A DNA stretch of 64,000 nt from Rhodospirillaceae bacterium (lineage in GTDB: Bacteria; Pseudomonadota; Alphaproteobacteria; Rhodospirillales; Rhodospirillaceae). The notes beneath the pieces were generated by a model. The model was not told the origin of the DNA and ran no database searches. It saw nothing but the letters and a program-made list of their open reading frames with translations. The stretch covers positions 112,572-176,571 of the forward strand of contig JAYRKL010000007.1 of NCBI GenBank assembly GCA_041905795.1. The letters run 5' to 3'. A program made the translations under genes and the position numbers. Shown here piece after piece: positions 44,759 through 56,311 of this stretch; positions within the stretch are counted from its first letter, which is position 1, and each line of letters begins with the position of its first letter.

Positions 44759-45735
44759 GTGTCCTTGGCCAGTTCCAGGGCGCGGCTGTAGATGGCGCGG
44801 CGCGGCTGGTTCAGCTGTTCCGCCACCAGGGCGGCGGCGTCGCGCAAGGACAGTTTCTCCATGGCCTGGCGCAAGGCGGCATCGATGTCGTCGGCGCTGA
44901 TCTCGGCGACAACGTTCGGCGCGCCCGCCACCACGATCACGGCTTCGCCTTTGGGTGTGGGCTCCTCAGCGTAGGCCACCGCGAGATCGGCGAGCGATCC
45001 GCGCCGCACCTCTTCGTGAAGCTTGGTGAGTTCGCGGCAGACGGCGGCGTCGCGTGCGCCCAGACCGGCGTGAAGATCGGCCAGGGTCTCGGCGATGCGC
45101 TGGGTGGATTCATAGAACACCAAGGTTGCCGCCAGGCCGCGCACTTCGGCGATGGCGTCCTGTCGCGCCTTGGCGCGATTGGGCAGGAAGCCGGCGAACA
45201 GGATGCGGTCGGTGGGGATGCCGGCGGTCACCGCGGCGGCCAACATCGCCGACGGGCCGGGGATCGGCACGACGCTGTGGCCGGCGTCGGCGCAGGCGCG
45301 CACCAGCTTGTAACCGGGATCGGAGATCAGCGGCGTGCCCGCGTCGCTCACCAGCGCCACGGCGGCGCCTTCGGCGATGCGCGCCAGCAGGGCAGGCCGC
45401 GCCCGGTCGGCGTTATGGTCGTGATAGGGCGTCAGCGGCGTCGGGATGTCGAAATGCAGCTTCAGGCCCCCGGTGACGCGGGTGTCCTCGCAGGCGATCA
45501 GGTCGGCGTCCCGCAAGGTCCGCGCCGCCCGCGCGGTCATGTCGCCGAGGTTGCCGATGGGCGTCGCCACCACATACAGGCCGGGGGCTAATTTGCCTTT
45601 GAGGGCGTTGGTTGCCGAACCGGTTGCCTTGGGGCCGCCCGATTTACTTGCGACGCTCGCGCCTGTAGGTTCGCCGCCACGCTTACCCCCGCTGTCAGAG
45701 GTGCCCCTTGGGCCTCGTTTTCCCCCGGCTTTCAT
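44755..45735 (-). CDS. rsmI: 16S rRNA (cytidine1402-2'-O)-methyltransferase RsmI
   Basis: 'LYVVATPIGNLGDMTARA...LIACEDTR' motif. The basic Gly/Lys-rich N-terminal extension makes the start uncertain. Confidence 0.88.
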   Translation of the reverse strand: MKAGGKRGPRGTSDSGGKRGGEPTGASVASKSGGPKATGSATNALKGKLAPGLYVVATPIGNLGDMTARAARTLRDADLIACEDTRVTGGLKLHFDIPTPLTPYHDHNADRARPALLARIAEGAAVALVSDAGTPLISDPGYKLVRACADAGHSVVPIPGPSAMLAAAVTAGIPTDRILFAGFLPNRAKARQDAIAEVRGLAATLVFYESTQRIAETLADLHAGLGARDAAVCRELTKLHEEVRRGSLADLAVAYAEEPTPKGEAVIVVAGAPNVVAEISADDIDAALRQAMEKLSLRDAAALVAEQLNQPRRAIYSRALELAKDT

Positions 45736-47132
45736 GGCTCAAAACGGTCCTGGTTTCGGCGTCGGTGGTGGCGTCGCTCACCCTCGCGGGATGCGCGTCG
45801 AAAGGTGTAGCACCGCGTGCGCCTCAGCCCCAGCGGCAAGCTGTCGTTAAGCCGCCGGTCTCGACCCAACCGCAATCCACCTTGCAGCCGCCGCCCGCCG
45901 CGGCGCGCGCGGTCCTGCCGCCGAACCAGCTGATCCCCGGCCTCGGCGCGCAAAGCCAGGCCCAGGGTCAAGCGGGCCGGCCCGACGCCGGCGGCCTGGT
46001 GCGCGTCGGCCTGTTGGTGCCGCTCAGCGGTCCGTCGGCGGCCATCGGCCAGGCGCTGCTCAACGCCGCCGAGATGGCGCTGTTCGATGTCGGCGACGAA
46101 CACCTGGTGATGCAGGTCTATGACAGCCAGGGCACGCCCGAAGGCGCCGCGCAGGCCGCGCAAAAGGCCATCAGCCACGGCGCGCAGTTGCTGCTGGGGC
46201 CGCTGTTCTCGGCGGAAGCCAAGGCCGCCGCCGGCCCCGCCGCCGCCGCGGGCGTCAACCTGGTCGCCTTCTCCACCGACCCCGCCATCGCCGGTCCCAA
46301 TACGTTTGTGATCGGCTTCCTGGTGCAGGAACAGGTGCGCCAGATCGTGGCCTATGCGCGCAGCCAAGGGCTTTCCAAATTCGCCGTGCTGGCGCCCAAC
46401 TCGGCCTATGGCCAGGCGGTGGTGGAGGCGCTGCAGCGTTATGTGCCGGCGCGCGGCGCCAAGGTCACGCAAGTGTCCTTCTACGATCCCGACGGCAAGG
46501 ATCTCACGGAAGTGGTGCGCTCGCTGGCGTCCTTCGACCAGCGCAAGAAAACCCTCGAACAGCAGAAAGCCGAGCTGGTCGGCAAGACCGACGAGATTTC
46601 CCAAATGGCGCTGAAGCGCCTGGAGCGCCTGGAAACCGTGGGTGAAGTGGGTTTCGACACCATCCTGTTGCCGGAACAGGGCACGCGCCTCACCCAGGCC
46701 GCATCCTTGCTGTCGTTCTATGACATCGATCCCGGCCGCGTGCAGTTGCTGGGGACCCTGTTGTGGGATTCGCCCGGCCTGGGCCGTGAGCCGGTGATGG
46801 TGGGCGGCGTCTATCCGGCGCCGCCGCCGGAGGCCAACCGCCAATTCTTCGCCCGCTACCGCGAACTCTATGGCCGCGCCGCGCCGACCATCGCCAGTCA
46901 TGGCTACGATGCTTTGGCTCTGGCGGCGATCCTGGCGCGCAGCGGCGAGCCGGCGCCGTTCTCGGCCCAGGCGCTGATGTCGCCGTCGGGCTTCGCCGGC
47001 GTGGACGGGATTTTCCGCTTCATGCCCGATGGCCTGTCCCAGCGGGGCTTTGCCATCATGCAGGTGACCAAGACCGGCAGCGCCGTGGCGCAACCGGCGC
47101 CCACGGCGTTCGACGCGCCCGCTACCAATTAA
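45708..47132 (+). CDS. Penicillin-binding protein activator (LpoA-like) lipoprotein with type-1 periplasmic binding fold
   Basis: Lipobox 'LTLAGCAS', a Pro/Gln-rich linker, then a Leu/Ile/Val-binding-protein-like domain. It is divergent from rsmI, as is commonly seen. The TTG start is inferred. Confidence 0.72.
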   Translation: MGLVFPRLSWLKTVLVSASVVASLTLAGCASKGVAPRAPQPQRQAVVKPPVSTQPQSTLQPPPAAARAVLPPNQLIPGLGAQSQAQGQAGRPDAGGLVRVGLLVPLSGPSAAIGQALLNAAEMALFDVGDEHLVMQVYDSQGTPEGAAQAAQKAISHGAQLLLGPLFSAEAKAAAGPAAAAGVNLVAFSTDPAIAGPNTFVIGFLVQEQVRQIVAYARSQGLSKFAVLAPNSAYGQAVVEALQRYVPARGAKVTQVSFYDPDGKDLTEVVRSLASFDQRKKTLEQQKAELVGKTDEISQMALKRLERLETVGEVGFDTILLPEQGTRLTQAASLLSFYDIDPGRVQLLGTLLWDSPGLGREPVMVGGVYPAPPPEANRQFFARYRELYGRAAPTIASHGYDALALAAILARSGEPAPFSAQALMSPSGFAGVDGIFRFMPDGLSQRGFAIMQVTKTGSAVAQPAPTAFDAPATN

Positions 47133-47134
47133 AC

Positions 47135-47866
47135 TTATTCCGCCGGCTTGGCGGGATAGATGCTCTTCGCCAACGAATCTTTCACGTTGGTGGCGGCGCG
47201 CAGCTGGTTGCGCTGGATGATGGCCTGTGGGTTGTCGTTGCCGACGCCGTAGACCGCCGCGTTCCAGTCCTTGCGCGGACGGATGACCGCGCCTTCCAGG
47301 CTGCCGCCGGCGAATAGGCCGGAGCTTTTGGAATAGGCGACGATGTCCTGGCCGACATGCGTCGTGGTGGCGGCTTCGGCGCCGGCACCGATGGTGCCGA
47401 TGCTCATGCCGACATTGGCACCCAGTTTGAACTCGTCGTTCAGCACCGCCGACAGGCCCTTCTCGGTCAGGATCATGAACACGATCTCGTCCGACTTCAT
47501 GCCGATCTGCAAGCCGATGGAGCCCGCGGTCATGCGGTAGAAGGCGGGATCGCCGAAGCCAGAGCCATCGGGCAGGCGCTGCAGCAGCACGCCGTCGCCG
47601 TAGGCGCCGCCCAGCACGAAACTGGCCTTGTTGTAGGACGGGATGATCAGCACGCCCTTGGCGCGGGCCAGGAGGTCGTCCATGTCGCTGGACTTCTTCA
47701 ACTCCTGGCGCACGCGGTCGACGGTGATCGAGGACTCGTCCAGCACGTGGCGGGCGTCGAGCACGTCATCGGCGCGGGCGGGGGCCGCTGCTGCGGCGCC
47801 CAGCGCGAGAATCCCGGCAGCCGCCGCGCGGCGGGACATGAGGTTGGTCATGGTGTGTGTCTCCAA
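47135..47866 (-). CDS. SYLF (Ysc84-like, DUF500) lipid-binding domain protein, exported
   Basis: 'SRRAAAAGILALGAAAAAPARA' Tat-like signal. 'FYRMTAGSIGLQIGMKSDEIVFMILTEKG' SYLF core. Confidence 0.8.
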   Translation of the reverse strand: METHTMTNLMSRRAAAAGILALGAAAAAPARADDVLDARHVLDESSITVDRVRQELKKSSDMDDLLARAKGVLIIPSYNKASFVLGGAYGDGVLLQRLPDGSGFGDPAFYRMTAGSIGLQIGMKSDEIVFMILTEKGLSAVLNDEFKLGANVGMSIGTIGAGAEAATTTHVGQDIVAYSKSSGLFAGGSLEGAVIRPRKDWNAAVYGVGNDNPQAIIQRNQLRAATNVKDSLAKSIYPAKPAE

Positions 47867-47964
47867 AACGCTGGGCGAGAAACTCGCCCAACAATAGGCC
47901 GGAACTATGGCGGAGGGGTTAAAGACCCCGGCGCGTGCCGGACACGCGACCGAACGACAGGCCG

Positions 47965-48753
47965 TTAACCGGCATTAAGCAGTAATCCCCGTTTGCGGGC
48001 AATGTGAAAGGTCCACTGGAAGACGGCAATTCCGAGCGCCAGGTAAACCAGGTCCAGGACAAAGCCCTGCCAGAGGTAGTCGGTGCGCACCACGCCCTCG
48101 AGCACGATGGCGCGCATGCCCTCGAACACATAGGCGCTGGGCAGGGCCCAGGCCACCGGCTGCAGCCAGCCGGGAAGTGCTGCGATCGGATAATAGACGC
48201 CGGCGATGGGCATGATGGCGAACATGGCGGCCCAGGCAAAAGCTTCCGCCGCGAGGCCCCAGCGGATCAGGATCGCCATGATGAACATACCGAAGGCCCA
48301 GCCGAACATGGACAGGAGCAGGTAGAAGGCGATCAGCGGCGCGCCCAGGTCGAAGATGGAATAGCCGAACAGCGGCACCAGCCCGAGGATCGCCGGCAGC
48401 AGGCTGACGACGGTGCGCACCAGGCTGGTGACCATGCAGCCGATCAGAAGCTCATGGGGCCGCAACGGGCTGATGAACAGGTGCCCAAGATTGCGCGAGA
48501 AGAACTCTTCGACAAAGGTGACGGTCATGCCGAGGTTGGAGCGGATCAGGATCTCCCACAGCACCACCGCGCCGAGGAACAGGCCGGCGGCCTGGGTGAT
48601 GCCGAAGGTATTGCTGCGCAGATAGACCGTGATGAAGCCCCATACGGCGAGATTCATGAACGGCCAGTAGATCAGCTCGACGATCCGCATGGGCGAGCGC
48701 CGCAGCAGGTAGAGGTAGCGCAAGGCCATCGCATAGATGCGTGTGAAGTTCAT
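47965..48753 (-). CDS. ABC-2 type transporter permease
   Basis: Six predicted hydrophobic helices at ABC-2 family length. Its ATG overlaps the ATPase stop by 4 nt. Confidence 0.85.
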   Translation of the reverse strand: MNFTRIYAMALRYLYLLRRSPMRIVELIYWPFMNLAVWGFITVYLRSNTFGITQAAGLFLGAVVLWEILIRSNLGMTVTFVEEFFSRNLGHLFISPLRPHELLIGCMVTSLVRTVVSLLPAILGLVPLFGYSIFDLGAPLIAFYLLLSMFGWAFGMFIMAILIRWGLAAEAFAWAAMFAIMPIAGVYYPIAALPGWLQPVAWALPSAYVFEGMRAIVLEGVVRTDYLWQGFVLDLVYLALGIAVFQWTFHIARKRGLLLNAG

Positions 48754-49502
48754 TTGCCCGCCTCCTCGCCGCCGCGGGCGATATGCAGGAACACTTCCTC
48801 GAGGCTATCGCGGCCGTATTTCTGGATGAGATCCTTAGGTGCGCCGCGGTCGTGGATCTTGCCGGCCTTCATCATCAGGAGTTCGTCGCACATGCGCTCG
48901 ACCTCCAGCATGTTATGCGAGGCGAAGAAGATGGCCGCGCCGCTGGTGCGGGCATAGTCCGACAGCACGCCGCGCACCCAGTCGCCGGTGTCTGGATCGA
49001 GGGACGCGGTGGGCTCATCCAGCACCAGCACCTTGGGCGCATTGATGAGCGCCTTGGCCAGAGCCACACGGGTTTTCTGTCCCGCGGACAATTCGCGCAC
49101 CCGGCGCTTCAGGACCTCGTTCAACTGCAAAAGCCCGGCGAGTTCTTCGATGCGCGCGTTCAAAGCCTTCACGCCATAGAGCCGGCCGTAAACTTTCAGG
49201 TTCTCCGTGACCGTCAACTCGCCCGGCAAATCCACATAAGGCGAGGAGAAGTTCATGAACGGCAGCGCCTGGAACCGTTCGCTGGCCATGTTGTGGCCCA
49301 GCACGCGCGCTTCGCCCGCGGTCGGCAGCAACAGGCCGAGCAGCATGGCGATGGTGGTGGTCTTGCCGGCGCCGTTGCCGCCCAAGAGTGCGACGATGCC
49401 GCCCTGCGGCACGGTGAACGAGATTCCGTTCACGGCCGGGACGTCCTCGAAATGTTTGGTCAGCCCGCGCGCTTCGATGGCCGGGACGGCGTCTTCAGAC
49501 AT
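48750..49502 (-). CDS. ABC transporter ATP-binding protein (ABC-2 exporter type)
   Basis: Walker A 'GGNGAGKTTT', signature 'LSAGQKTRVALAKAL' and Walker B 'LVLDEPT'. Start set at the ATG for MSEDAV, which overlaps the upstream stop as TGATG. The 564-aa track ORF is an artefact. Confidence 0.92.
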   Translation of the reverse strand: MSEDAVPAIEARGLTKHFEDVPAVNGISFTVPQGGIVALLGGNGAGKTTTIAMLLGLLLPTAGEARVLGHNMASERFQALPFMNFSSPYVDLPGELTVTENLKVYGRLYGVKALNARIEELAGLLQLNEVLKRRVRELSAGQKTRVALAKALINAPKVLVLDEPTASLDPDTGDWVRGVLSDYARTSGAAIFFASHNMLEVERMCDELLMMKAGKIHDRGAPKDLIQKYGRDSLEEVFLHIARGGEEAGK

Positions 49503-50752
49503 CAAAGCCGCGTGCGTACCAGGCCGTCGATATAGCGGCCCTGGAACAAGGTGATACCCAGCTGCTGGCCGACCTTGACGCAGGCTTCGGAGTCGCAGCG
49601 CGCGAGGATGGTGCGGCCTTTCTTGCGCTCGCGGATCAGGTCTTTCAGGTCCTTGCCCATCTCGGAACCCGCATAAGCGGCCATTTCCTGGCTCCAGCCG
49701 AGTTTGGCGTAGGCGACGCCCAGGCGCAGGGTGTCGGCGTAAGGGAACGTGTTCAGGTTCAGGCCGTCGACACAGATGCGGTAGCCGCGCTCGGTGACGA
49801 AGTCGCGGGCGAAGGCGAAGGCATTGGGATCGGCGAACATGTCTTCCAGGCGCATCTCCAACACCACGTCCTGGCTCGAGGGCGCGAAGTCGTCGTCGAA
49901 CTGCAGGAAATCTTCCGACAGCACGGTGGAGACGTTGACATTGATGGAGAAGCCGTCGCGCACCAGGGTTCGGTCCTCGCGCCGCGCGATCTGCGCCATG
50001 ACGCGCCGGTCCAGGGTCTGGGTGAAGCGCTGGAACAGCCACGGATTGATGGTCAGATTGGTGCGCGGCATCAGGGTTTCGCGCAGGTCGGGGATCGACA
50101 CGAACACTTCCGTGAAGATCACTTCGGGCTTGCCGTCCTCGACGAAGGCGCACACCGGTTGTCTGCGGGTGAAGCTCGACAGATCGACGCGCTGCAGCGA
50201 GTCCTCGGCTTTGCCCAGTTCCAGCGGCGTGAGCGGCGTGCCCTTCTCGGGGTTGGAGCGCATCAGTTCGCGCTCGGCGATCAGCTCGGTCAGGTTCTTG
50301 CGCACGGCCTTCTCGCTGCCGGCGCTCTGGCGCATGGCAAAGGCCAATAACTTGTCGTAGTCCTTGCTCATGTCGAACCAGCTCGACAGCCGGTTCTGGC
50401 GCGCGTCGTTCTTGAATTTCTGCATCAGCGCGTCGCGTTCCCACAGCTTCAGCAGCTTGAGGACGGCGCGCTCGGCGGTGTCGGTCTCGTGGCGCTCGAA
50501 CACGACCATGAGGTCGGAGTTGCGCAGGCGGTAGAGCCAGGCGGAGCGCGTGCGCGTGAGTTCGTCGAAGGCGGTTTCGGCGTTGCGCAGGTTCTGCTTG
50601 TCGCGGTGTTCGGGCTCCAGGCGCGACAGATGCAGGCGGATCACGCCCTTGTTGCGGTTGCCCGGATCCATGGCGCGCAGATCGTCGAGGAAGCGCGCTT
50701 CATGGCTTTCGCCCAGGGGATGGGTGGCGGTGCCGCCGGCCTGATCGCTCAT
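49502..50752 (-). CDS. Cytoplasmic protein with degenerate GGDEF-like and EAL-like regions (paralogue B)
   Basis: By-eye alignment to EAL landmarks: FTEVFVSI / INVNVS / VVLEMRLED / ICVDGLNLNT / AKLGW / LARCDS / FQGRY. The N-terminal region has 'LRNSDLMVVF' where GGDEF would sit. ATGA overlap with paralogue A. Confidence 0.72.
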   Translation of the reverse strand: MSDQAGGTATHPLGESHEARFLDDLRAMDPGNRNKGVIRLHLSRLEPEHRDKQNLRNAETAFDELTRTRSAWLYRLRNSDLMVVFERHETDTAERAVLKLLKLWERDALMQKFKNDARQNRLSSWFDMSKDYDKLLAFAMRQSAGSEKAVRKNLTELIAERELMRSNPEKGTPLTPLELGKAEDSLQRVDLSSFTRRQPVCAFVEDGKPEVIFTEVFVSIPDLRETLMPRTNLTINPWLFQRFTQTLDRRVMAQIARREDRTLVRDGFSINVNVSTVLSEDFLQFDDDFAPSSQDVVLEMRLEDMFADPNAFAFARDFVTERGYRICVDGLNLNTFPYADTLRLGVAYAKLGWSQEMAAYAGSEMGKDLKDLIRERKKGRTILARCDSEACVKVGQQLGITLFQGRYIDGLVRTRL

Positions 50753-51993
50753 TTCGGCGCTCCCGCCGGGGTGCGCGCGCCCGCCGCCGGCGCGGCCTGC
50801 GCCGGGCGCTTGCGGCCCTTGCTGAAGGCGTCGAGGAAGTGGCCTTGGAACACGCAGATGCCGGTCTTCAGCCCCCACGCCAGGGCGGCGGCTGATTCGC
50901 AGCGGGAGAGGATGGTCTTGTCGGCGCCGATCTCGGCGATCATGGCGCTGGTGTTGGCGAGGCTCTTGGTGTTGGACGTGTCGAGGAGTTCCGGCGCCCA
51001 GACGATCTTGACGTAGTCGGGCTTCATGGCCGCCACGTCCAGCATCTCGATGGTGGTGGTGGTGAGGCCGTCGATCAGGATGGCGTGGCCCATGGACGCC
51101 ATCACGTTGCGTATGTCGATATACATGCCGATGTTGGTCAGGAGGTCGGCCGCGGTCACCTCGACGATGACTTTCTGCCCTTTCTCCAGCGCCTGGACGA
51201 AGCTGCCGAAGGCGGGCGTCAGGATGGTCTCGAGGTTGAGATTCAGGCTGAGGCAGGGAATGCCGCGGGCCTGGGGGGCACGCACCACGCTCTCCAGCAT
51301 GCGGATGTCCATGGTGCGGGACAGGTCCTGGAACAGCGACCGGTCGCCGAACAGATTGATGTGGGGCGCGATGGTGCGCTGCAGATCGCCCACCGACAGG
51401 AAAAACTCGTAGAACTCGATCGAGGCTTCCTTGGTCTGCGGATTGATGCGCAAGGCCACCTGGTCGCGGATGAAGGGCACGACGTTGGCGAAGGCGAGTT
51501 TCTTCTGCACGTCATCGAGCATCGCCGGCGTGATCGGCGGCAGCGGCGCGGCCAGCGCCCGGGGCGGCGCAACCTGGGCTTCCTGGCGCAACTGCTGGGC
51601 GGCGTGGATCGCCACCGCGGCGTCCAGCGCCAGGTCGTACCAGGCGATGAACTGGTCGTTGCCCTCGGCGTCGTCCAGGGTGATCGGGTCGCCCTCGAAC
51701 AGTTTGCGTACGCGCAGCACGATGTTGTTGACGTCGCGCTGGGCGCCGCCGTTGAGGATCAGCACCAGGTCGTCGTTGGACAGGTTGAAGAGCTGCGCCT
51801 GGCGGCCGCTTTCCAGCACGCGGAACATGCGCGTGACGATCTTGATGCGGACCGGGGTGCGGTTGGAGGGCAGCAGCTTGGACAGGCGGATATGCACCGC
51901 CTTGCGGCCCTCGGGGTTACGCCGGACGCGGTCGAGGGTGTCGACCAACAGGGTCTCTTGGTAGCCTTTGGCGCCCTGGTTCGTTGCGTTCAT
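50749..51993 (-). CDS. Cytoplasmic protein with degenerate GGDEF-like and EAL-like regions (paralogue A)
   Basis: It has the same architecture as paralogue B: FYEFFLSV / LNLNLE / VIVEVTAAD / ILIDGLTTTT / VKIVW / LSRCES / FQGHF. The N-terminal region has 'LSNDDLVLIL'. No signal peptide or TM segment. Confidence 0.72.
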   Translation of the reverse strand: MNATNQGAKGYQETLLVDTLDRVRRNPEGRKAVHIRLSKLLPSNRTPVRIKIVTRMFRVLESGRQAQLFNLSNDDLVLILNGGAQRDVNNIVLRVRKLFEGDPITLDDAEGNDQFIAWYDLALDAAVAIHAAQQLRQEAQVAPPRALAAPLPPITPAMLDDVQKKLAFANVVPFIRDQVALRINPQTKEASIEFYEFFLSVGDLQRTIAPHINLFGDRSLFQDLSRTMDIRMLESVVRAPQARGIPCLSLNLNLETILTPAFGSFVQALEKGQKVIVEVTAADLLTNIGMYIDIRNVMASMGHAILIDGLTTTTIEMLDVAAMKPDYVKIVWAPELLDTSNTKSLANTSAMIAEIGADKTILSRCESAAALAWGLKTGICVFQGHFLDAFSKGRKRPAQAAPAAGARTPAGAPK

Positions 51994-52232
51994 GCGTCTT
52001 CAATTGTAGAGAAGCGGAAAGCCGTCCAGCCGGGGTTTCCGGACCCTGGTTGCCGTGTGGTTTTAGCGTCTCAAACCCTGGCCGTCCAATGGGTCATCCT
52101 GACCGGTAACCATTTGGAAAAGATTAACGAATATTTTGCTGCACGGTCCGGGTATACCCGGAAAAGCGGCCCCGGCGGCGGTTTCCGGGATCCGCGTACG
52201 CGACCGGCTCTTGAAGTGGGTTTGAGGATCGA

Positions 52233-53171
52233 ATGACACGCATTGTGGTGACGGGCGGCGCCGGGTTCATCGGTTCCCATATATGTGAACGGCTCCTGGC
52301 CGCCGGCAACGAGGTGCTGTGTGTGGATAACTTCTTCACCGGGCGCCGGCAGAACATCACGCCGATGCTCGCCAACCACAATTTCGAGCTGATCCGGCAC
52401 GACGTCACCTTCCCGCTCTATATCGAGGCCGACCAGATCTACAACATGGCCTGCCCGGCCTCGCCGGTGCACTACCAGTTCGATCCGGTGCAGACCACCA
52501 AGACCAGCGTCCACGGCGCCATCAACATGCTGGGGCTGGCCAAGCGCACAAAGGCGAAAATCCTCCAGGCTTCCACCAGCGAGGTCTACGGCGACCCGGC
52601 CATTCATCCGCAGGTGGAAAGTTACTGGGGCAACGTCAATCCCATCGGCCCGCGCGCCTGCTACGACGAAGGCAAGCGCTGCGCCGAAACCCTGTTCTTC
52701 GACTATTACCGCCAGCACAAGCTGCGCATCCGCGTGGTGCGCATCTTCAACACCTATGGCCCGCGCATGCTGCCGGACGACGGCCGCGTGGTGTCCAACT
52801 TCGCGGTGCAGGCGCTCAAGGGCGAGCCCATCACGGTCTACGGCAAAGGCGACCAGACCCGGTCGTTCTGCTACGTCGACGATACCGTGGACGGGATCAT
52901 CCGCCTGATGAACGCGCCGGACGACGTCACCGGCCCGGTCAACATCGGCAATCCCGTGGAGACCACGGTCTACGAACTGGCGGAAAAGATCATCAAGCTC
53001 GCCAAGTCGCCGTCGAAAATCATCCACAAGCCCTTGCCGCAGGACGACCCCGTGCGCCGCCGTCCCGATATCGGCATCGCCAAGGACAAGCTGTCGTGGC
53101 AGCCGTCCGTCGCTCTCGACGACGGCCTGGAACGCACGGTGCATTTCTTCCGCGGACTGCTCGCGCAATAG
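52233..53171 (+). CDS. UDP-glucuronate decarboxylase (UDP-xylose synthase) SDR
   Basis: '[13 protein letters not shown]', '[10 protein letters not shown]' and 'YDEGKRCAE' are characteristic of UXS. Confidence 0.9.
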
Positions 53172-53187
53172 ACCGGACGGGCCATCC

Positions 53188-54690
53188 ATGCCTTCAGGCC
53201 CCGACGGTTCCGATCCCAGCGCGCCCTTTGAGCAAGCGGCGGCCGGACTGATCGGCGATTTCGCCGGCCGGCGCATCCTGTGTGTCGGCGACGTGATGGT
53301 GGATCACTCGCTCTACGGCGAAGTCAAACGCCTGTCGCCGGAAGCCCCGGTGCCGGTGGTGCGCGTCACCCGCGAGTCCAGCGACCTTGGCGGCGCCGGC
53401 AACGTGGCGCGCAATATCGCCGCCCTGGGCGCGTCCTGCGCCTTCGTGTCGATCATCGGCGACGATCGCGGCGGTCAGCAGGCCAGCGAATTGCTGGCGC
53501 GCCTGCCGCAGACCGATCCCTACCTGCGCGTCGCGAAGGGCCGCGAAACCACCATCAAGAACCGCTTCTTCAGCAACGACGGCCATCATCTGCTGCGCGC
53601 CGACCGCGAAACCGTGATGCCGCTGACCGGCGCCGATCTCGCCGACCTCGAACGCGCGGCGGCGGCGGAGATCGTCCGCTGCGACGCGGTGATCCTGTCC
53701 GACTACGCCAAAGGCATGCTGACCACCGGCCTGGCGGCGGCCGTGATCGCCGCCGCGCGCGCCGCCGGCAAGCCGGTGATCGTCGATCCGAAAACGTCCG
53801 ATTACGAGCGCTACCGCGGCGCCACCATCATCACCCCCAACCGCGCCGAACTGGCCGAAGCCACCGGCATGGCGGTGGAGTCCGACGCGGCCATTGTCGC
53901 GGCTGCGCAAGTCCTGCGCGGCCGCACCGGCGCCGCCGCCATCCTGGTCACACGCTCCGGTGAAGGCATGAGCCTGGTCGCCGGCGACGGCGTCTATCAT
54001 CTGCCGGCCGAGAACCGCGAAGTGGCCGATGTCACCGGCGCGGGCGATACCGTGATCGCGGTGTTCTCGCTGGCGGTGGCCGGCGGCGCATCCATGGTCG
54101 CGGCGGCGCGGCTGGCCAATATCGCTGCGGGTATTGTCGTCGGCCGCCAGGGCACGGCGGTCGCCACCGCCGCCGATCTCACGGCGGCGCTGCGGCACAG
54201 CGGTTTGGCCGGGGCGGAAGAGAAAATCGTGGACCGTGCGACCGCCGCCGCGAAGGCCGGCGACTGGCGGCGGCAGGGCTTGAAAGTGGGTTTCACCAAC
54301 GGCTGCTTCGATTTGCTGCATCCCGGCCATGTCTCGCTGCTGCGCCAGGCGCGCGCCGCCTGCGACCGCCTGGTGGTGGGTTTGAACAGCGACGCTTCGG
54401 TCAGACGCCTGAAGGGCGAGACCCGGCCGGTGCAGACCGAATCCGCGCGGGCGACGGTCATGGCCTCGCTGGCGTCGGTCGATCTGGTGGTGATCTTCGG
54501 CGAAGATACGCCGCTGGACCTGATCGAACAGGTGCGGCCCGACGTGCTGGTGAAAGGCGCGGACTACACCCGGGACAAGGTGGTCGGCGGCGATTTTGTC
54601 GAGAGCACCGGCGGGCGGGTAGTACTGGCGGAGGTGGTGCCGGCGTTTTCGACCACCGCGACCATTGCCTCGCTCAAGAAACCTGGGTGA
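53188..54690 (+). CDS. hldE: Bifunctional D-beta-D-heptose 7-phosphate kinase / heptose 1-phosphate adenylyltransferase
   Basis: N-terminal ribokinase-like domain ('GDVMVDHSLYGEV...PEAPVPV', 'TGAGDTV') and C-terminal cytidylyltransferase domain ('GFTNGCFDLLHPGHV'). Confidence 0.92.
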   Translation: MPSGPDGSDPSAPFEQAAAGLIGDFAGRRILCVGDVMVDHSLYGEVKRLSPEAPVPVVRVTRESSDLGGAGNVARNIAALGASCAFVSIIGDDRGGQQASELLARLPQTDPYLRVAKGRETTIKNRFFSNDGHHLLRADRETVMPLTGADLADLERAAAAEIVRCDAVILSDYAKGMLTTGLAAAVIAAARAAGKPVIVDPKTSDYERYRGATIITPNRAELAEATGMAVESDAAIVAAAQVLRGRTGAAAILVTRSGEGMSLVAGDGVYHLPAENREVADVTGAGDTVIAVFSLAVAGGASMVAAARLANIAAGIVVGRQGTAVATAADLTAALRHSGLAGAEEKIVDRATAAAKAGDWRRQGLKVGFTNGCFDLLHPGHVSLLRQARAACDRLVVGLNSDASVRRLKGETRPVQTESARATVMASLASVDLVVIFGEDTPLDLIEQVRPDVLVKGADYTRDKVVGGDFVESTGGRVVLAEVVPAFSTTATIASLKKPG

Positions 54691-54714
54691 TGATGGGGGC
54701 TTGGGGGACCGACG

Positions 54715-55104
54715 ATGAAAAAATCAGGATCGCATCTTCTGGCTTGTGCCGCGGGGCTGGCGCTCTCGGCCTGCGGCAATGACGGCCGCCTGTTCCCCGA
54801 TGTGAAGACCGCCGAAGTCTTCGGCACCCAGTACGCCGCTCCGGCGCCGACCGTGCGCCAGCCGATCCTGCCGGAAATGCTGGTGCCCTGCCGCGGCCAT
54901 GTGCTGGTGCCGGCCATCGGCATGCTGCTGGTGCCGCGCGGCAAGGAAGCGCCGGCGGAAGGCCAATACCTCAAGGAAGAGCACCTCACCGCGCCCTACC
55001 GCATCCTGCCGCCGGGTGCGCGCATCAGCCAGGAAATCAGCCCGGCGCGCCTGAATGTCGAACTGGACCGCGATGGCCGCATCACCGGCCTGTATTGCGG
55101 CTGA
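54715..55104 (+). CDS. Lipoprotein with peptidase-inhibitor I78-like C-terminal domain
   Basis: Lipobox 'LALSACGN' and C-terminal 'YRILPPGARISQEISPARLNVELDRDGRITGLYCG'. Confidence 0.68.
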   Translation: MKKSGSHLLACAAGLALSACGNDGRLFPDVKTAEVFGTQYAAPAPTVRQPILPEMLVPCRGHVLVPAIGMLLVPRGKEAPAEGQYLKEEHLTAPYRILPPGARISQEISPARLNVELDRDGRITGLYCG

Positions 55105-55152
55105 GCGCGTTTCCGGGAAAGCCGTTCCGTCCGGACAGGCGCCGAAAATACA

Positions 55153-55701
55153 TCAGTAATCTTGAATCCGCGGATCGGTCATGGCGTTGAGCCTTTGACC
55201 GGCGGCCAAGGCAAACCGCAATGTCAGCGCCTTGCGCCGGCCGGCGTGCAGCGGATGATGCGGCGCCTGGCGTACCACCGCCGCCGAGTAGTTATCGGCG
55301 ATGATGACGCCGCAGGTGGCAGGCAGGATCTGCCAGGGGAAGTGCGGCGGCACGGCGAAGGAAAACGCGTCGCAGTAAGGCACGTATTCCAGCCACTTGG
55401 CGTCGCCCCTGAAATCCTCGGGCGTGCTTTTCACTTCCACCATCAGGATGACGCCGGCGGCGTTGAGGCCCACCACATCCGCCCGCCGGCCGTTGCCCAG
55501 CTTGAATTCCATCAGGTTCGAGAACCCCAGGTCATCCATCCAGCGGCAGACGCCGCGCGTGACGGCGGCGGTCACTGCCGGCGGCGACATGGCGCGGCTC
55601 AGGGTGCTGTGGGCCTCTGCGCCGGGTGCGATCACCGGCGCATCGGCGGCGCCGAAGTCAGTTGCAGAAACCAGATCGGACAAGCCCGGGATGTTCCTCA
55701 T
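55153..55701 (-). CDS. MmcB-family DNA repair (endonuclease-like) protein
   Basis: 'RRADVVGLNAAGVILMVEVKSTPEDFRGDAKW' PD-(D/E)xK-like core. Start set at the ATG for MRNIPG. Confidence 0.72.
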   Translation of the reverse strand: MRNIPGLSDLVSATDFGAADAPVIAPGAEAHSTLSRAMSPPAVTAAVTRGVCRWMDDLGFSNLMEFKLGNGRRADVVGLNAAGVILMVEVKSTPEDFRGDAKWLEYVPYCDAFSFAVPPHFPWQILPATCGVIIADNYSAAVVRQAPHHPLHAGRRKALTLRFALAAGQRLNAMTDPRIQDY

Positions 55702-55891
55702 ATGTTCCCCCGCACCGCACTCTACGGCGCGCCGCGTCCGCTCGCAACAACATGACCGACAAGCCAGGGCCAACAAGCGGGCCAGCAAGGGAGGCAAGGA
55801 CATGGCTGCCATCGCGTCCTCGTGTGTTTTATTCGCCGGCTAACTCCCTATGGTGTCGCCGCTTTTTTGGTTTGAGACGGTGGAGACGACG

Positions 55892-56311
55892 ATGAAAGTG
55901 ATCCGGGCCAAGCTTCACGGCATCAAGGTGACGGGGGCGGATCTGCATTATCACGGGTCCATTACCCTGGACCCCGAGCACGGCGCGGCCGCCGGGCTCT
56001 ATCCCACCGAGTTCGTGGAGATCTGGAACAAGAATTCTGGCGCCCGCATCACCACCTATGTGATCTACGGCGTGCCGGGATCGCGCTGCTGCATCTTGAA
56101 CGGCGCCGCGGCGCGCACCTGCCAGAAGGGCGACGAGCTGATCATCGCCGCGTCGGACGACGTGCGGCCGGAAGACCTGTATGCCTTGAAGCCGAAGGTG
56201 TTGACCTTCACCCCCGACAACGACATCGACCAGGTGCTGCAGTACGAGGTCTACAAAGGACCCGAGCGGGATTTCGATTTCCGGATCGTTGACCTGACGC
56301 CGCGTAAGTAA
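55892..56311 (+). CDS. panD: Aspartate 1-decarboxylase
   Basis: 'MKVIRAKLHGIKVTGADLHYHGSITLD', including the Gly-Ser self-cleavage site. Confidence 0.92.
   Translation: MKVIRAKLHGIKVTGADLHYHGSITLDPEHGAAAGLYPTEFVEIWNKNSGARITTYVIYGVPGSRCCILNGAAARTCQKGDELIIAASDDVRPEDLYALKPKVLTFTPDNDIDQVLQYEVYKGPERDFDFRIVDLTPRK

Follow-up and report, generated by a model that had tools for sequence, protein, structure and literature searches.

Two adjacent genes, A and B, on the minus strand at positions 49502-51993 of a 64,000-nucleotide stretch of Rhodospirillaceae bacterium contig JAYRKL010000007.1 (the window, to which all coordinates refer) most likely encode soluble pseudoenzymes of a single alphaproteobacterial family, in which an N-terminal alpha/beta domain is followed by a C-terminal EAL-type barrel. 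As judged by alignment, this family keeps the full ligand set of one of the two metal sites known from EAL phosphodiesterases, M1, and is devoid of all three ligands of the other, M2, including the general base, so that an 'M1-only' pocket is left. With the M2 site and the catalytic base lost, A and B are most likely nucleotide sensors and not enzymes. The reading that we favor, with roughly even confidence, is that they serve as non-hydrolyzing receptors of a metal-nucleotide complex, with c-di-GMP (cyclic dimeric guanosine monophosphate) as the probable ligand, and that they act as an A-B pair.

Gene A is taken from the list of open reading frames (ORFs), and the same gene is called on an identical contig. 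For gene B the mechanical ORF begins with a GTG and covers 49502-50878, or 458 amino acids; the real start is the ATG at 50752, from which the product is 100% identical to database protein P0121, and an identical metagenomic contig carries the same call. The two genes together span the interval 49502-51993 exactly, and their products align over the full length at 26% identity (E=1e-38), in agreement with the tandem gene duplication proposed in the first-pass annotation, a model's note made from the sequence alone. Its statement that neither protein has a membrane or sensor domain holds as well. No hydrophobic segment is found in A or B, where the highest Kyte-Doolittle mean over 19 residues is 1.2 and 0.93, respectively, against 2.3 in the neighboring permease. 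Neither protein has room for a sensor domain, the modeled fold of A beginning at about residue 10, and EAL is the only domain found in a Pfam scan of the two. All landmark strings quoted in that annotation are present in the ORF translations, namely FYEFFLSV, LNLNLE, VIVEVTAAD, ILIDGLTTTT, VKIVW, LSRCES, FQGHF and LSNDDLVLIL in A, and FTEVFVSI, INVNVS, VVLEMRLED, ICVDGLNLNT, AKLGW, LARCDS, FQGRY and LRNSDLMVVF in B. A structure was modeled for A, both at full length and for the N-terminal domain (N-domain) separately, and B was placed by its alignment to A, which gives the following features:

50749-51993, minus strand: paralogue A, 414 amino acids, A-type (ORF; identical contig; AlphaFold2 model with a mean predicted local distance difference test score, pLDDT, of 86.6; homologues at 60-90% identity in Rhodospirillaceae-like metagenome-assembled genomes, MAGs)
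51571-51972, minus strand: N-terminal alpha/beta domain of A, residues ~8-141 (model secondary structure, Foldseek, hhalign)
50821-51528, minus strand: EAL-like barrel of A, residues ~156-391 (Pfam EAL, HMMER alignment, Foldseek, family conservation)
49502-50752, minus strand: paralogue B, 416 amino acids, B-type core form (identity to P0121, gene call, junction sequence)
50303-50716, minus strand: N-terminal alpha/beta domain of B, residues ~13-150, with hairpin L-R-N-S-D80 (full-length alignment with A)
49517-50227, minus strand: EAL-like domain of B, residues ~176-412 (Pfam EAL, alignment with A)

The similarity of A and B to EAL domains is clearly above chance. Pfam EAL (PF00563) matches A at residues 223-387 (E=2.2e-6, 27.6 bits) and B at residues 281-450 of the 458-amino-acid ORF (E=3.2e-6, 27.1 bits), in both cases below the gathering score of 31.3 and over model positions 58-233, the last three quarters only. 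Of 110 family members, 102 match this model at E<=1 (the lowest E being 3.8e-11), and many homologues of A and B carry a precomputed PF00563 annotation. A profile built from 27 family members and compared to the PDB retrieves the EAL domain of RbdA (8pps, E=0.0015; 5xgb, E=0.0065) and also Bd1971. Note that the family profile was required to reach EAL structures; the sequence of A alone yielded one spurious match, a photosystem I subunit at E=0.09. NCBIfam holds no meaningful family for A or B, and its matches to MagA and CsrD at E=0.03-0.06 (CsrD 0.064) were discarded as noise.

The AlphaFold2 model of A, calculated from a 27-member family alignment, is a confident one, as its mean pLDDT indicates. 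A Foldseek comparison of this model to the PDB gives 91 matches at E<=1e-3, and 50 of the 50 matches listed contain an EAL domain. Multidomain EAL proteins fill the first 19 places; most of these are GGDEF-EAL tandems (RbdA 5xgb at E=4e-13, MorA, PA0575, DosP, LapD), and the BLUF-EAL protein BlrP1 is also among them, while isolated EAL domains rank next (FimX, YahA, PA3825 and BifA, with template modeling (TM) scores of 0.53-0.62 normalized to the target). The prediction confirms the EAL (beta/alpha) barrel fold of A, as had been anticipated in the first-pass annotation from the retained EAL landmarks.

In EAL phosphodiesterases, M1 is held by the EAL Glu, the Asn, the acid that occupies the ExTE site (Asp130 in PA3825) and the leading Asp of DDFGTG, and M2 is held by the second Asp of DDFGTG, the KxD Asp and the EGVE Glu; activation of the nucleophile needs both metals (PMC5301497). 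Corresponding residues were derived from a HMMER alignment of the family profile to RbdA and Bd1971, with the exception of E196, Q178 and Q383-G384, which were assigned by their motif position in the family alignment. In the numbering of A, the pocket positions and their canonical counterparts are:

Q178: Gln of the QP motif
E196: EAL Glu
N251: Asn of the NLS motif
E278: first Glu of E-x-T-E
D308: first Asp of DDFGTG
G309: second Asp of DDFGTG
K329: Lys of K-x-D
V331 in A, Gly in B: Asp of K-x-D
S363 in A, Ala in B: first Glu of EGVE (general base)
R364: Gly after the first Glu of EGVE
E/D366: last Glu of EGVE
Q383-G384: QG motif

Paralogue A keeps Q178, E196, N251, E278, D308, K329, E366 and Q383-G384. 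Replaced are the Arg of EALxR (S200), the second Asp of DDFGTG (G309), the KxD Asp (V331) and the general-base Glu (S363), and the second Glu of ExTE is replaced as well. The equivalents kept in B are E215, N271, E299, D329, K350, D387 and Q404-G405, and its losses run parallel to those in A, with the second Asp changed to Gly and the general base to Ala. The loop-6 motif DFG(T/A)GYSS is not present in either protein; A reads IDGLTTTTIEML and B reads VDGLNLNTFPYA at this place. Four residues after the EAL Glu stands a Ser (S200) instead of the Arg of EALxR, as is the case in the family.

The conservation of these positions was analyzed in 142 family representatives that are mutually at most 50% identical. 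No positions in the entire protein are better conserved than those of the pocket. E196, N251, E278, D308, K329, Q178, Q383 and G384 are conserved to 96-100%, and the four M1-ligand positions E196, N251, E278 and D308 to 99-100%, while the M2 ligands are lost family-wide. Position 366 is conserved as acidic only, position 309 is Gly in 91% of the representatives, R364, which adjoins the lost general base, is Arg in 87%, and D283 is 98% conserved. The family alignment, which the first-pass annotation had suggested as a check, thus upholds the pattern of conserved pocket residues and lost M2 ligands, but the annotation's wording that most catalytic residues are lost is too strong, as the M1 set, the catalytic Lys and the Gln residues of the QP and QG motifs are retained. 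Of DDFGTG and EGVE, whose metal ligands it lists as replaced, the second Asp and the first EGVE Glu are gone, and the first Asp (D308) and the last acid (E/D366) are kept. With both metals needed for nucleophile activation (PMC5301497) and the M2 set gone, a loss of phosphodiesterase activity is to be expected.

In the model of A the N-domain has the order alpha0-beta1-alpha1-beta2-beta3-alpha2-beta4-alpha3, and its beta2-beta3 hairpin, at the place of GG(D/E)EF, reads LSNDD in A (L71-S-N-D-D75) and LRNSD in B. The first-pass annotation had located these strings at the GG(D/E)EF site, and this placement fits the model; its claim that GGDEF landmarks are kept, however, does not hold at the level of sequence. 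Pfam GGDEF (PF00990) has no match in A or B at E<=10 and matches 0 of 110 family members at E<=1. Homology to GGDEF domains is weakly indicated by the predicted topology, by Foldseek and by hhalign. Among the top 50 PDB matches of the separate N-domain model (pLDDT 86.5), GGDEF domains and class III cyclases form the majority, but these matches are weak, with a best E of 0.029, TM scores of 0.35-0.45 and none below 1e-3. Structure prediction, another of the checks proposed in that annotation, therefore bears out the EAL barrel and lends the GGDEF-like fold weak support. The profile-profile comparison that had also been proposed is marginal: when hhalign sets the N-domain profile against 120 canonical GGDEF domains, 126 collinear columns result, with P=0.0039, a score of 22.2 and a probability of 8.5%, and the control scores are 13.3 for the reversed profile, at most 20.1 in 40 block shuffles and 18.9 for the EAL half.

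The GG(D/E)EF signature of the hairpin, the metal-binding Asp of beta1 and the GTP-binding Asn/Asp are all missing, and beta1 reads HIRLSKLLPSNR versus the canonical LDLDHFKxxND. An I-site motif RxxD is absent too; R64 is nearly invariant and stands at about the right distance, but the sequence is RQAQ in A and RSAW in B. The N-domain is certainly not a diguanylate cyclase, and going by the predicted structure it is probably a very diverged remnant of a GGDEF/cyclase fold without nucleotide-binding motifs. Its only near-invariant positions in the 142 representatives are D75 (99% conserved), D102, S38 and L40. Among A-type proteins the mean pairwise identity is 0.70 for the N-domain and 0.64 for the EAL half, and among B-type proteins the two values are 0.62 and 0.70; being conserved as strongly as the EAL half, the N-domain is a working domain, plausibly a partner-binding surface.

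The family is large. A HMMER scan of 1.84 billion cluster representatives returned 1758 clusters at E<=1e-3, of which 741 reach E<=1e-30; almost all are proteins of 400-430 amino acids that match end-to-end, so that the family comprises at least 741 clusters at 50% identity. Orthologues of A and B at 60-97% identity occur in many Rhodospirillaceae-like MAGs and are annotated as 'hypothetical' or as 'EAL domain-containing protein (putative c-di-GMP-specific phosphodiesterase class I)'. Named members were found in Thalassospira, Kordiimonas and Rhodospirillales, and further in Caenispirillum, Insolitispirillum, Novispirillum, Roseospirillum, Haematospirillum, Telmatospirillum, Kiloniella and Desertibaculum; among the named members found, the family is limited to Alphaproteobacteria. 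Azospirillum brasilense Sp7 has one full-length member of 429 amino acids on its chromid, replicon p1 (NZ_CP012915; L083:5884-7173, plus strand) that is 27% identical to B. This gene is absent from the PLSDB annotation table, and its host is genetically tractable. No characterized member of the family was found in the literature.

When the 142 representatives were scored with A-only and B-only hidden Markov models, 106 were assigned to the B side and 20 to the A side, and 16 were ambiguous. Across 79 genome loci, every A is followed by B where the contig permits a check, and B-like genes also occur alone, as they do in Kiloniellales and other distant lineages that have a single B-like gene. 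As A is never found without B, while B stands alone in distant lineages, B is taken as the family's core form, with A as an old duplicate that has diverged and depends on B; the B-type is the ancestral form. A recent duplication was considered and rejected, since A and B share 26% identity and each has its own orthologues across Rhodospirillales. A metagenomic protein of 712 amino acids, P0241, combines the N-domain with two successive EAL-like domains in a single chain; it could be a natural fusion that fits two barrels working together, or a gene-calling artefact.

Among characterized systems, LapD (Pseudomonas fluorescens, Vibrio cholerae) resembles A and B in that a non-catalytic alpha/beta domain precedes a non-catalytic EAL barrel and that sensing of a nucleotide, not its degradation, is expected. 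LapD structures 3pjw and 6pwk align with the full-length model of A at E=5e-10 to 1e-8. LapD, however, sits in the membrane and has a HAMP domain, an S-helix and an output domain in the periplasm, whereas A and B are soluble proteins in which nothing precedes the alpha/beta domain, and they form a paralogous pair. In LapD's EAL domain, c-di-GMP is bound without metal (PMC5301497, Table 2), and this metal-free pocket differs from that of the A/B family, which keeps all four M1 ligands and whose N-domain is not recognized as GGDEF by Pfam. No lapG-like or lapA-like genes were found near A-B. FimX (Pseudomonas aeruginosa, Xanthomonas) is likewise a degenerate tandem with a receptor EAL domain, and its EAL structures 3hv9, 4afy and 4foj are among the best single-domain matches. 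Its QP Gln, Q463, and its Q673-G674 contact c-di-GMP (PMC7288161); these are the conserved Q178 and Q383-G384 of the A/B family. FimX is without the DDFGTG metal ligands and binds without metal (PMC5301497). Unlike A and B it carries N-terminal REC and PAS domains and keeps the post-EAL Arg (R481), which is Ser in the A/B family, and its output runs via PilZ-PilB to type IV pili, of which there is no sign at the A-B locus. The A/B family is thus set apart from both LapD and FimX: it has no membrane segment, HAMP, REC or PAS domain, its pocket is predicted to be metal-competent, and it occurs as a conserved pair in an exporter operon. The earlier comparison to inactive LapD- or FimX-type receptors stands as far as the degenerate tandem fold and the loss of M2 and base are concerned, but the M1 set is kept, the EALxR Arg is lost and the pocket differs in detail.

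The active tandems RbdA/PA0861, MorA, PA0575 and DosP are the best two-domain structural matches (E=4e-13 to 4e-11). In these proteins the GGDEF and EAL signatures are both intact, and two-metal sites and sensor domains are present, in contrast to A and B, which are without the M2 ligands, the general base, the loop-6 DFGTGYSS and GG(D/E)EF. YdiV, STM1697 and CsrD are small or degenerate EAL-like regulators with no known phosphodiesterase activity that act by protein-protein contacts, have lost most pocket residues and are not known to bind the nucleotide. Their pocket is degenerate, whereas no part of the A/B family proteins is better conserved than the pocket. In YkuI the catalytic set is complete, and a PAS-like domain is found at the C-terminus; A and B, unlike YkuI, have lost the M2 ligands genetically and carry their extra domain at the N-terminus. 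YkuI is listed as '1 metal (M1), c-di-GMP' (PMC5301497, Table 2), and it is in this one-metal state that the residue pattern of A and B would be locked.

The ancient and conserved duplication and a four-gene operon with an ABC-2 exporter (ABC, ATP-binding cassette) both go beyond the first-pass annotation. The stop of each gene overlaps the start of the next, with ATGA at A-B (4 bases), TGATG at B-ATPase (one base) and ATGA at ATPase-permease (4 bases), and owing to these overlaps A, B, ATPase and permease (47965-51993, minus strand) look like one translationally coupled unit, which implies a fixed stoichiometry. The remaining genes of the unit and its divergent neighbors are:

48750-49502, minus strand: ABC transporter ATP-binding protein, 250 amino acids, DrrA/NodI type (Pfam ABC_tran, E=2e-29)
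47965-48753, minus strand: ABC-2 type permease, 262 amino acids, last gene of the unit (Pfam ABC2_membrane and ABC2_membrane_3; 43 hydrophobic windows)
51994-52232, no strand assigned: divergent intergenic region of 239 bp, presumed promoter region of both units (sequence)
52233-53171, plus strand: UDP-sugar dehydratase/decarboxylase-like gene (uxs), divergent neighbor
53188-54690, plus strand: hldE, bifunctional heptose kinase/adenylyltransferase (NCBIfam HldE, E=2e-138)

The best NCBIfam matches of the ATPase are RbbA, DrrA and NodI, all below their cut-offs. As to the class of the exporter, no informative PDB relatives were found, and its Pfam and NCBIfam matches are generic only. The 239-bp region has no Rfam match, and thus no c-di-GMP riboswitch, and no match to the sigma-70 consensus. 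No RNA elements were found in the window, sigma-70 promoters and terminators around the operon did not rise above shuffled expectation, and a motif search detected no gene for a canonical GGDEF or EAL enzyme elsewhere in the window. In most of the 79 genome loci hldE lies upstream of the A-B genes and is divergent, and in 32 distant loci the most persistent neighbors are hldE on the upstream side (21/32) and, on the downstream side, the ABC ATPase (19/32) and the permease (15/32).

Taken together, a pocket that is the best-conserved part of the protein although the M2 and base machinery is gone is most economically read as that of a non-hydrolyzing receptor. With its M1 site, its catalytic Lys and the guanine- and phosphate-contacting Q178 and Q383, it would bind a metal-nucleotide, most likely Mg2+-c-di-GMP; retention of QG and of the Gln residues that contact guanine (FimX contact list, PMC7288161) makes c-di-GMP the default candidate. 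The loss of M2 and general base would leave the bound nucleotide unhydrolyzed, and A and B would act as second-messenger receptors. Translational coupling, strict co-occurrence and the usual dimer habit of EAL domains suggest an A-B heterodimer, which would form via the usual EAL-EAL interface. The operon suggests the ABC-2 exporter as one output, so that the receptor may control this co-transcribed exporter, or else an envelope function linked to heptose synthesis. A more specific version, in which an A-B heterodimeric one-metal receptor directly gates the ABC-2 exporter and so couples the level of c-di-GMP or of a heptose-pathway nucleotide to the export of envelope glycoconjugates, we consider decidedly unlikely. 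If true, it would constitute a soluble signaling module from a pseudo-GGDEF/EAL protein to an ABC exporter across Rhodospirillales, Kiloniellales and relatives, for which there is no described precedent.

Several observations weigh against the proposed receptor and its outputs. The Arg of EALxR is a Ser in the family. An EALxR-type Arg is present in LapD as well as in FimX. In the latter it contacts c-di-GMP, R481 being in the contact list (PMC7288161), and with this residue lost the affinity and specificity for c-di-GMP become uncertain. The basis for the heterodimer consists of gene arrangement, co-occurrence and the one fused protein P0241, itself possibly an artefact of gene calling. The ABC pair is missing at the locus in ~40 close relatives (L002-L044), and the lone member of A. 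brasilense is flanked by rnd (RNase D) and ppx-ppk, and its surroundings contain neither hldE nor the ABC pair. Synteny among close relatives, moreover, is not independent evidence. With the pair missing in relatives and in Azospirillum the exporter cannot be the only or obligatory partner, and an obligatory role was rejected on these grounds. The link to exporter and heptose metabolism is recurrent across alphaproteobacterial orders but not obligatory.

Three other explanations have to be weighed against a c-di-GMP receptor. A and B might be ligand-independent adaptors like YdiV or CsrD, with EAL-like and N-terminal domains that serve as protein-interaction surfaces and do not involve a nucleotide. 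Degenerate EAL proteins that do not bind c-di-GMP are established in YdiV and CsrD, the loss of the EALxR Arg fits such a role, and an N-domain as conserved as the EAL half suggests partner-binding surfaces; a pocket conserved to 96-100% over 142 members, however, is hard to explain without a bound metal or ligand, and we regard the adaptor role as unlikely. The pocket might alternatively sense another ligand, be it pGpG, another cyclic dinucleotide or a nucleotide sugar such as ADP-heptose, given the neighboring hldE. With the EALxR Arg gone, R364 conserved and D283 specific to the family, there is room for altered specificity, and this remodeling of the pocket (S200 for Arg, R364 beside the lost base, D283 at 98%) is joined by the persistence of hldE as a neighbor across orders and by a gene for a tetratricopeptide-repeat (TPR) protein with a GT9 domain that lies between family gene and ABC ATPase in two loci. 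Nevertheless, Q178 and Q383-G384 are kept, positions that contact guanines in EAL domains and in FimX (PMC7288161), the hldE synteny may be mere inherited gene order, and nucleotide-sugar binding by a known EAL-fold protein is not documented here, so that a different ligand appears rather unlikely.

A complete M1 site with the catalytic Lys would also be compatible with slow or one-metal phosphodiesterases for c-di-GMP or another phosphodiester, which might work only as an A-B dimer in which the site is completed in trans, and the extra family-specific acids D283 and E/D366 in or near the pocket could in principle substitute for what is missing. All three M2 ligands including the general-base Glu are lost, though, in both paralogues and family-wide. 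In RocR, single substitutions at M2 or general-base positions reportedly abolish activity. Given the need for both metals in nucleophile activation (PMC5301497), residual hydrolysis is highly improbable, and a non-hydrolyzing receptor for Mg2+-c-di-GMP remains the reading that we prefer.

Degenerate GGDEF-EAL receptors are an established class, whose characterized members LapD and FimX are metal-free and have sensor or membrane domains. The present family is distinct in being large, alphaproteobacterial among its named members, stand-alone and equipped with exactly one of the two catalytic metal sites, this site being very highly conserved. Its current annotation is 'hypothetical' or, misleadingly, 'putative c-di-GMP phosphodiesterase', and identification of the ligand would put thousands of annotations right and introduce a receptor type defined by an 'M1-only' pocket. 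It could further reveal how a second messenger controls an ABC-2 exporter or an envelope function in a group to which Azospirillum and numerous abundant lineages of freshwater and the sea belong, and the ancient A/B duplication provides a natural case for the specialization of pseudoenzyme paralogues.

The usual order in the 79 loci is hldE-(uxs), divergent from A-B, followed by the optional ABC ATPase and permease, a gene for a Ysc84/SYLF lipoprotein and a convergent LppC-like gene. In the window the Ysc84/SYLF-domain lipoprotein gene lies at 47135-47866 (minus strand) and the convergent gene for an LppC/periplasmic-binding-protein-like product at 45708-47132 (plus strand); both are syntenic in ~45 related loci, and on the identical contig L080 a gene for an rsmI-like methyltransferase comes next. 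The TPR-repeat gene with the Glyco_transf_9 domain (GT9, heptosyltransferase family) was found in two MAGs between a single B-like gene and the ABC ATPase (L065:9254-10513 and L067:4348-5610, both plus strand); next to hldE it is a second neighbor with a link to heptose. In Caenispirillum a gene for a methyl-accepting chemotaxis protein stands between B and the ABC ATPase (L045:11196-12668 and L050:11072-12532, both plus strand). In single-copy lineages the opposite strand carries, directly downstream, genes for a response regulator (REC plus Fis-type helix-turn-helix) and a histidine kinase as well as cobT (L064:9299-12373, minus strand), with similar positions in L065, L067, L069, L075 and L076. 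A calcineurin-like metallophosphoesterase gene (PF00149) lies directly upstream of the family gene at L057:7105-7854 (minus strand) and in 10 other distant loci. Within 46000-56000 of the window, many long antisense or overlapping ORFs (for example 48750-50444, 564 amino acids; 51085-52236; 52071-53276) are the usual artefacts of DNA with ~65% G+C and not genes.

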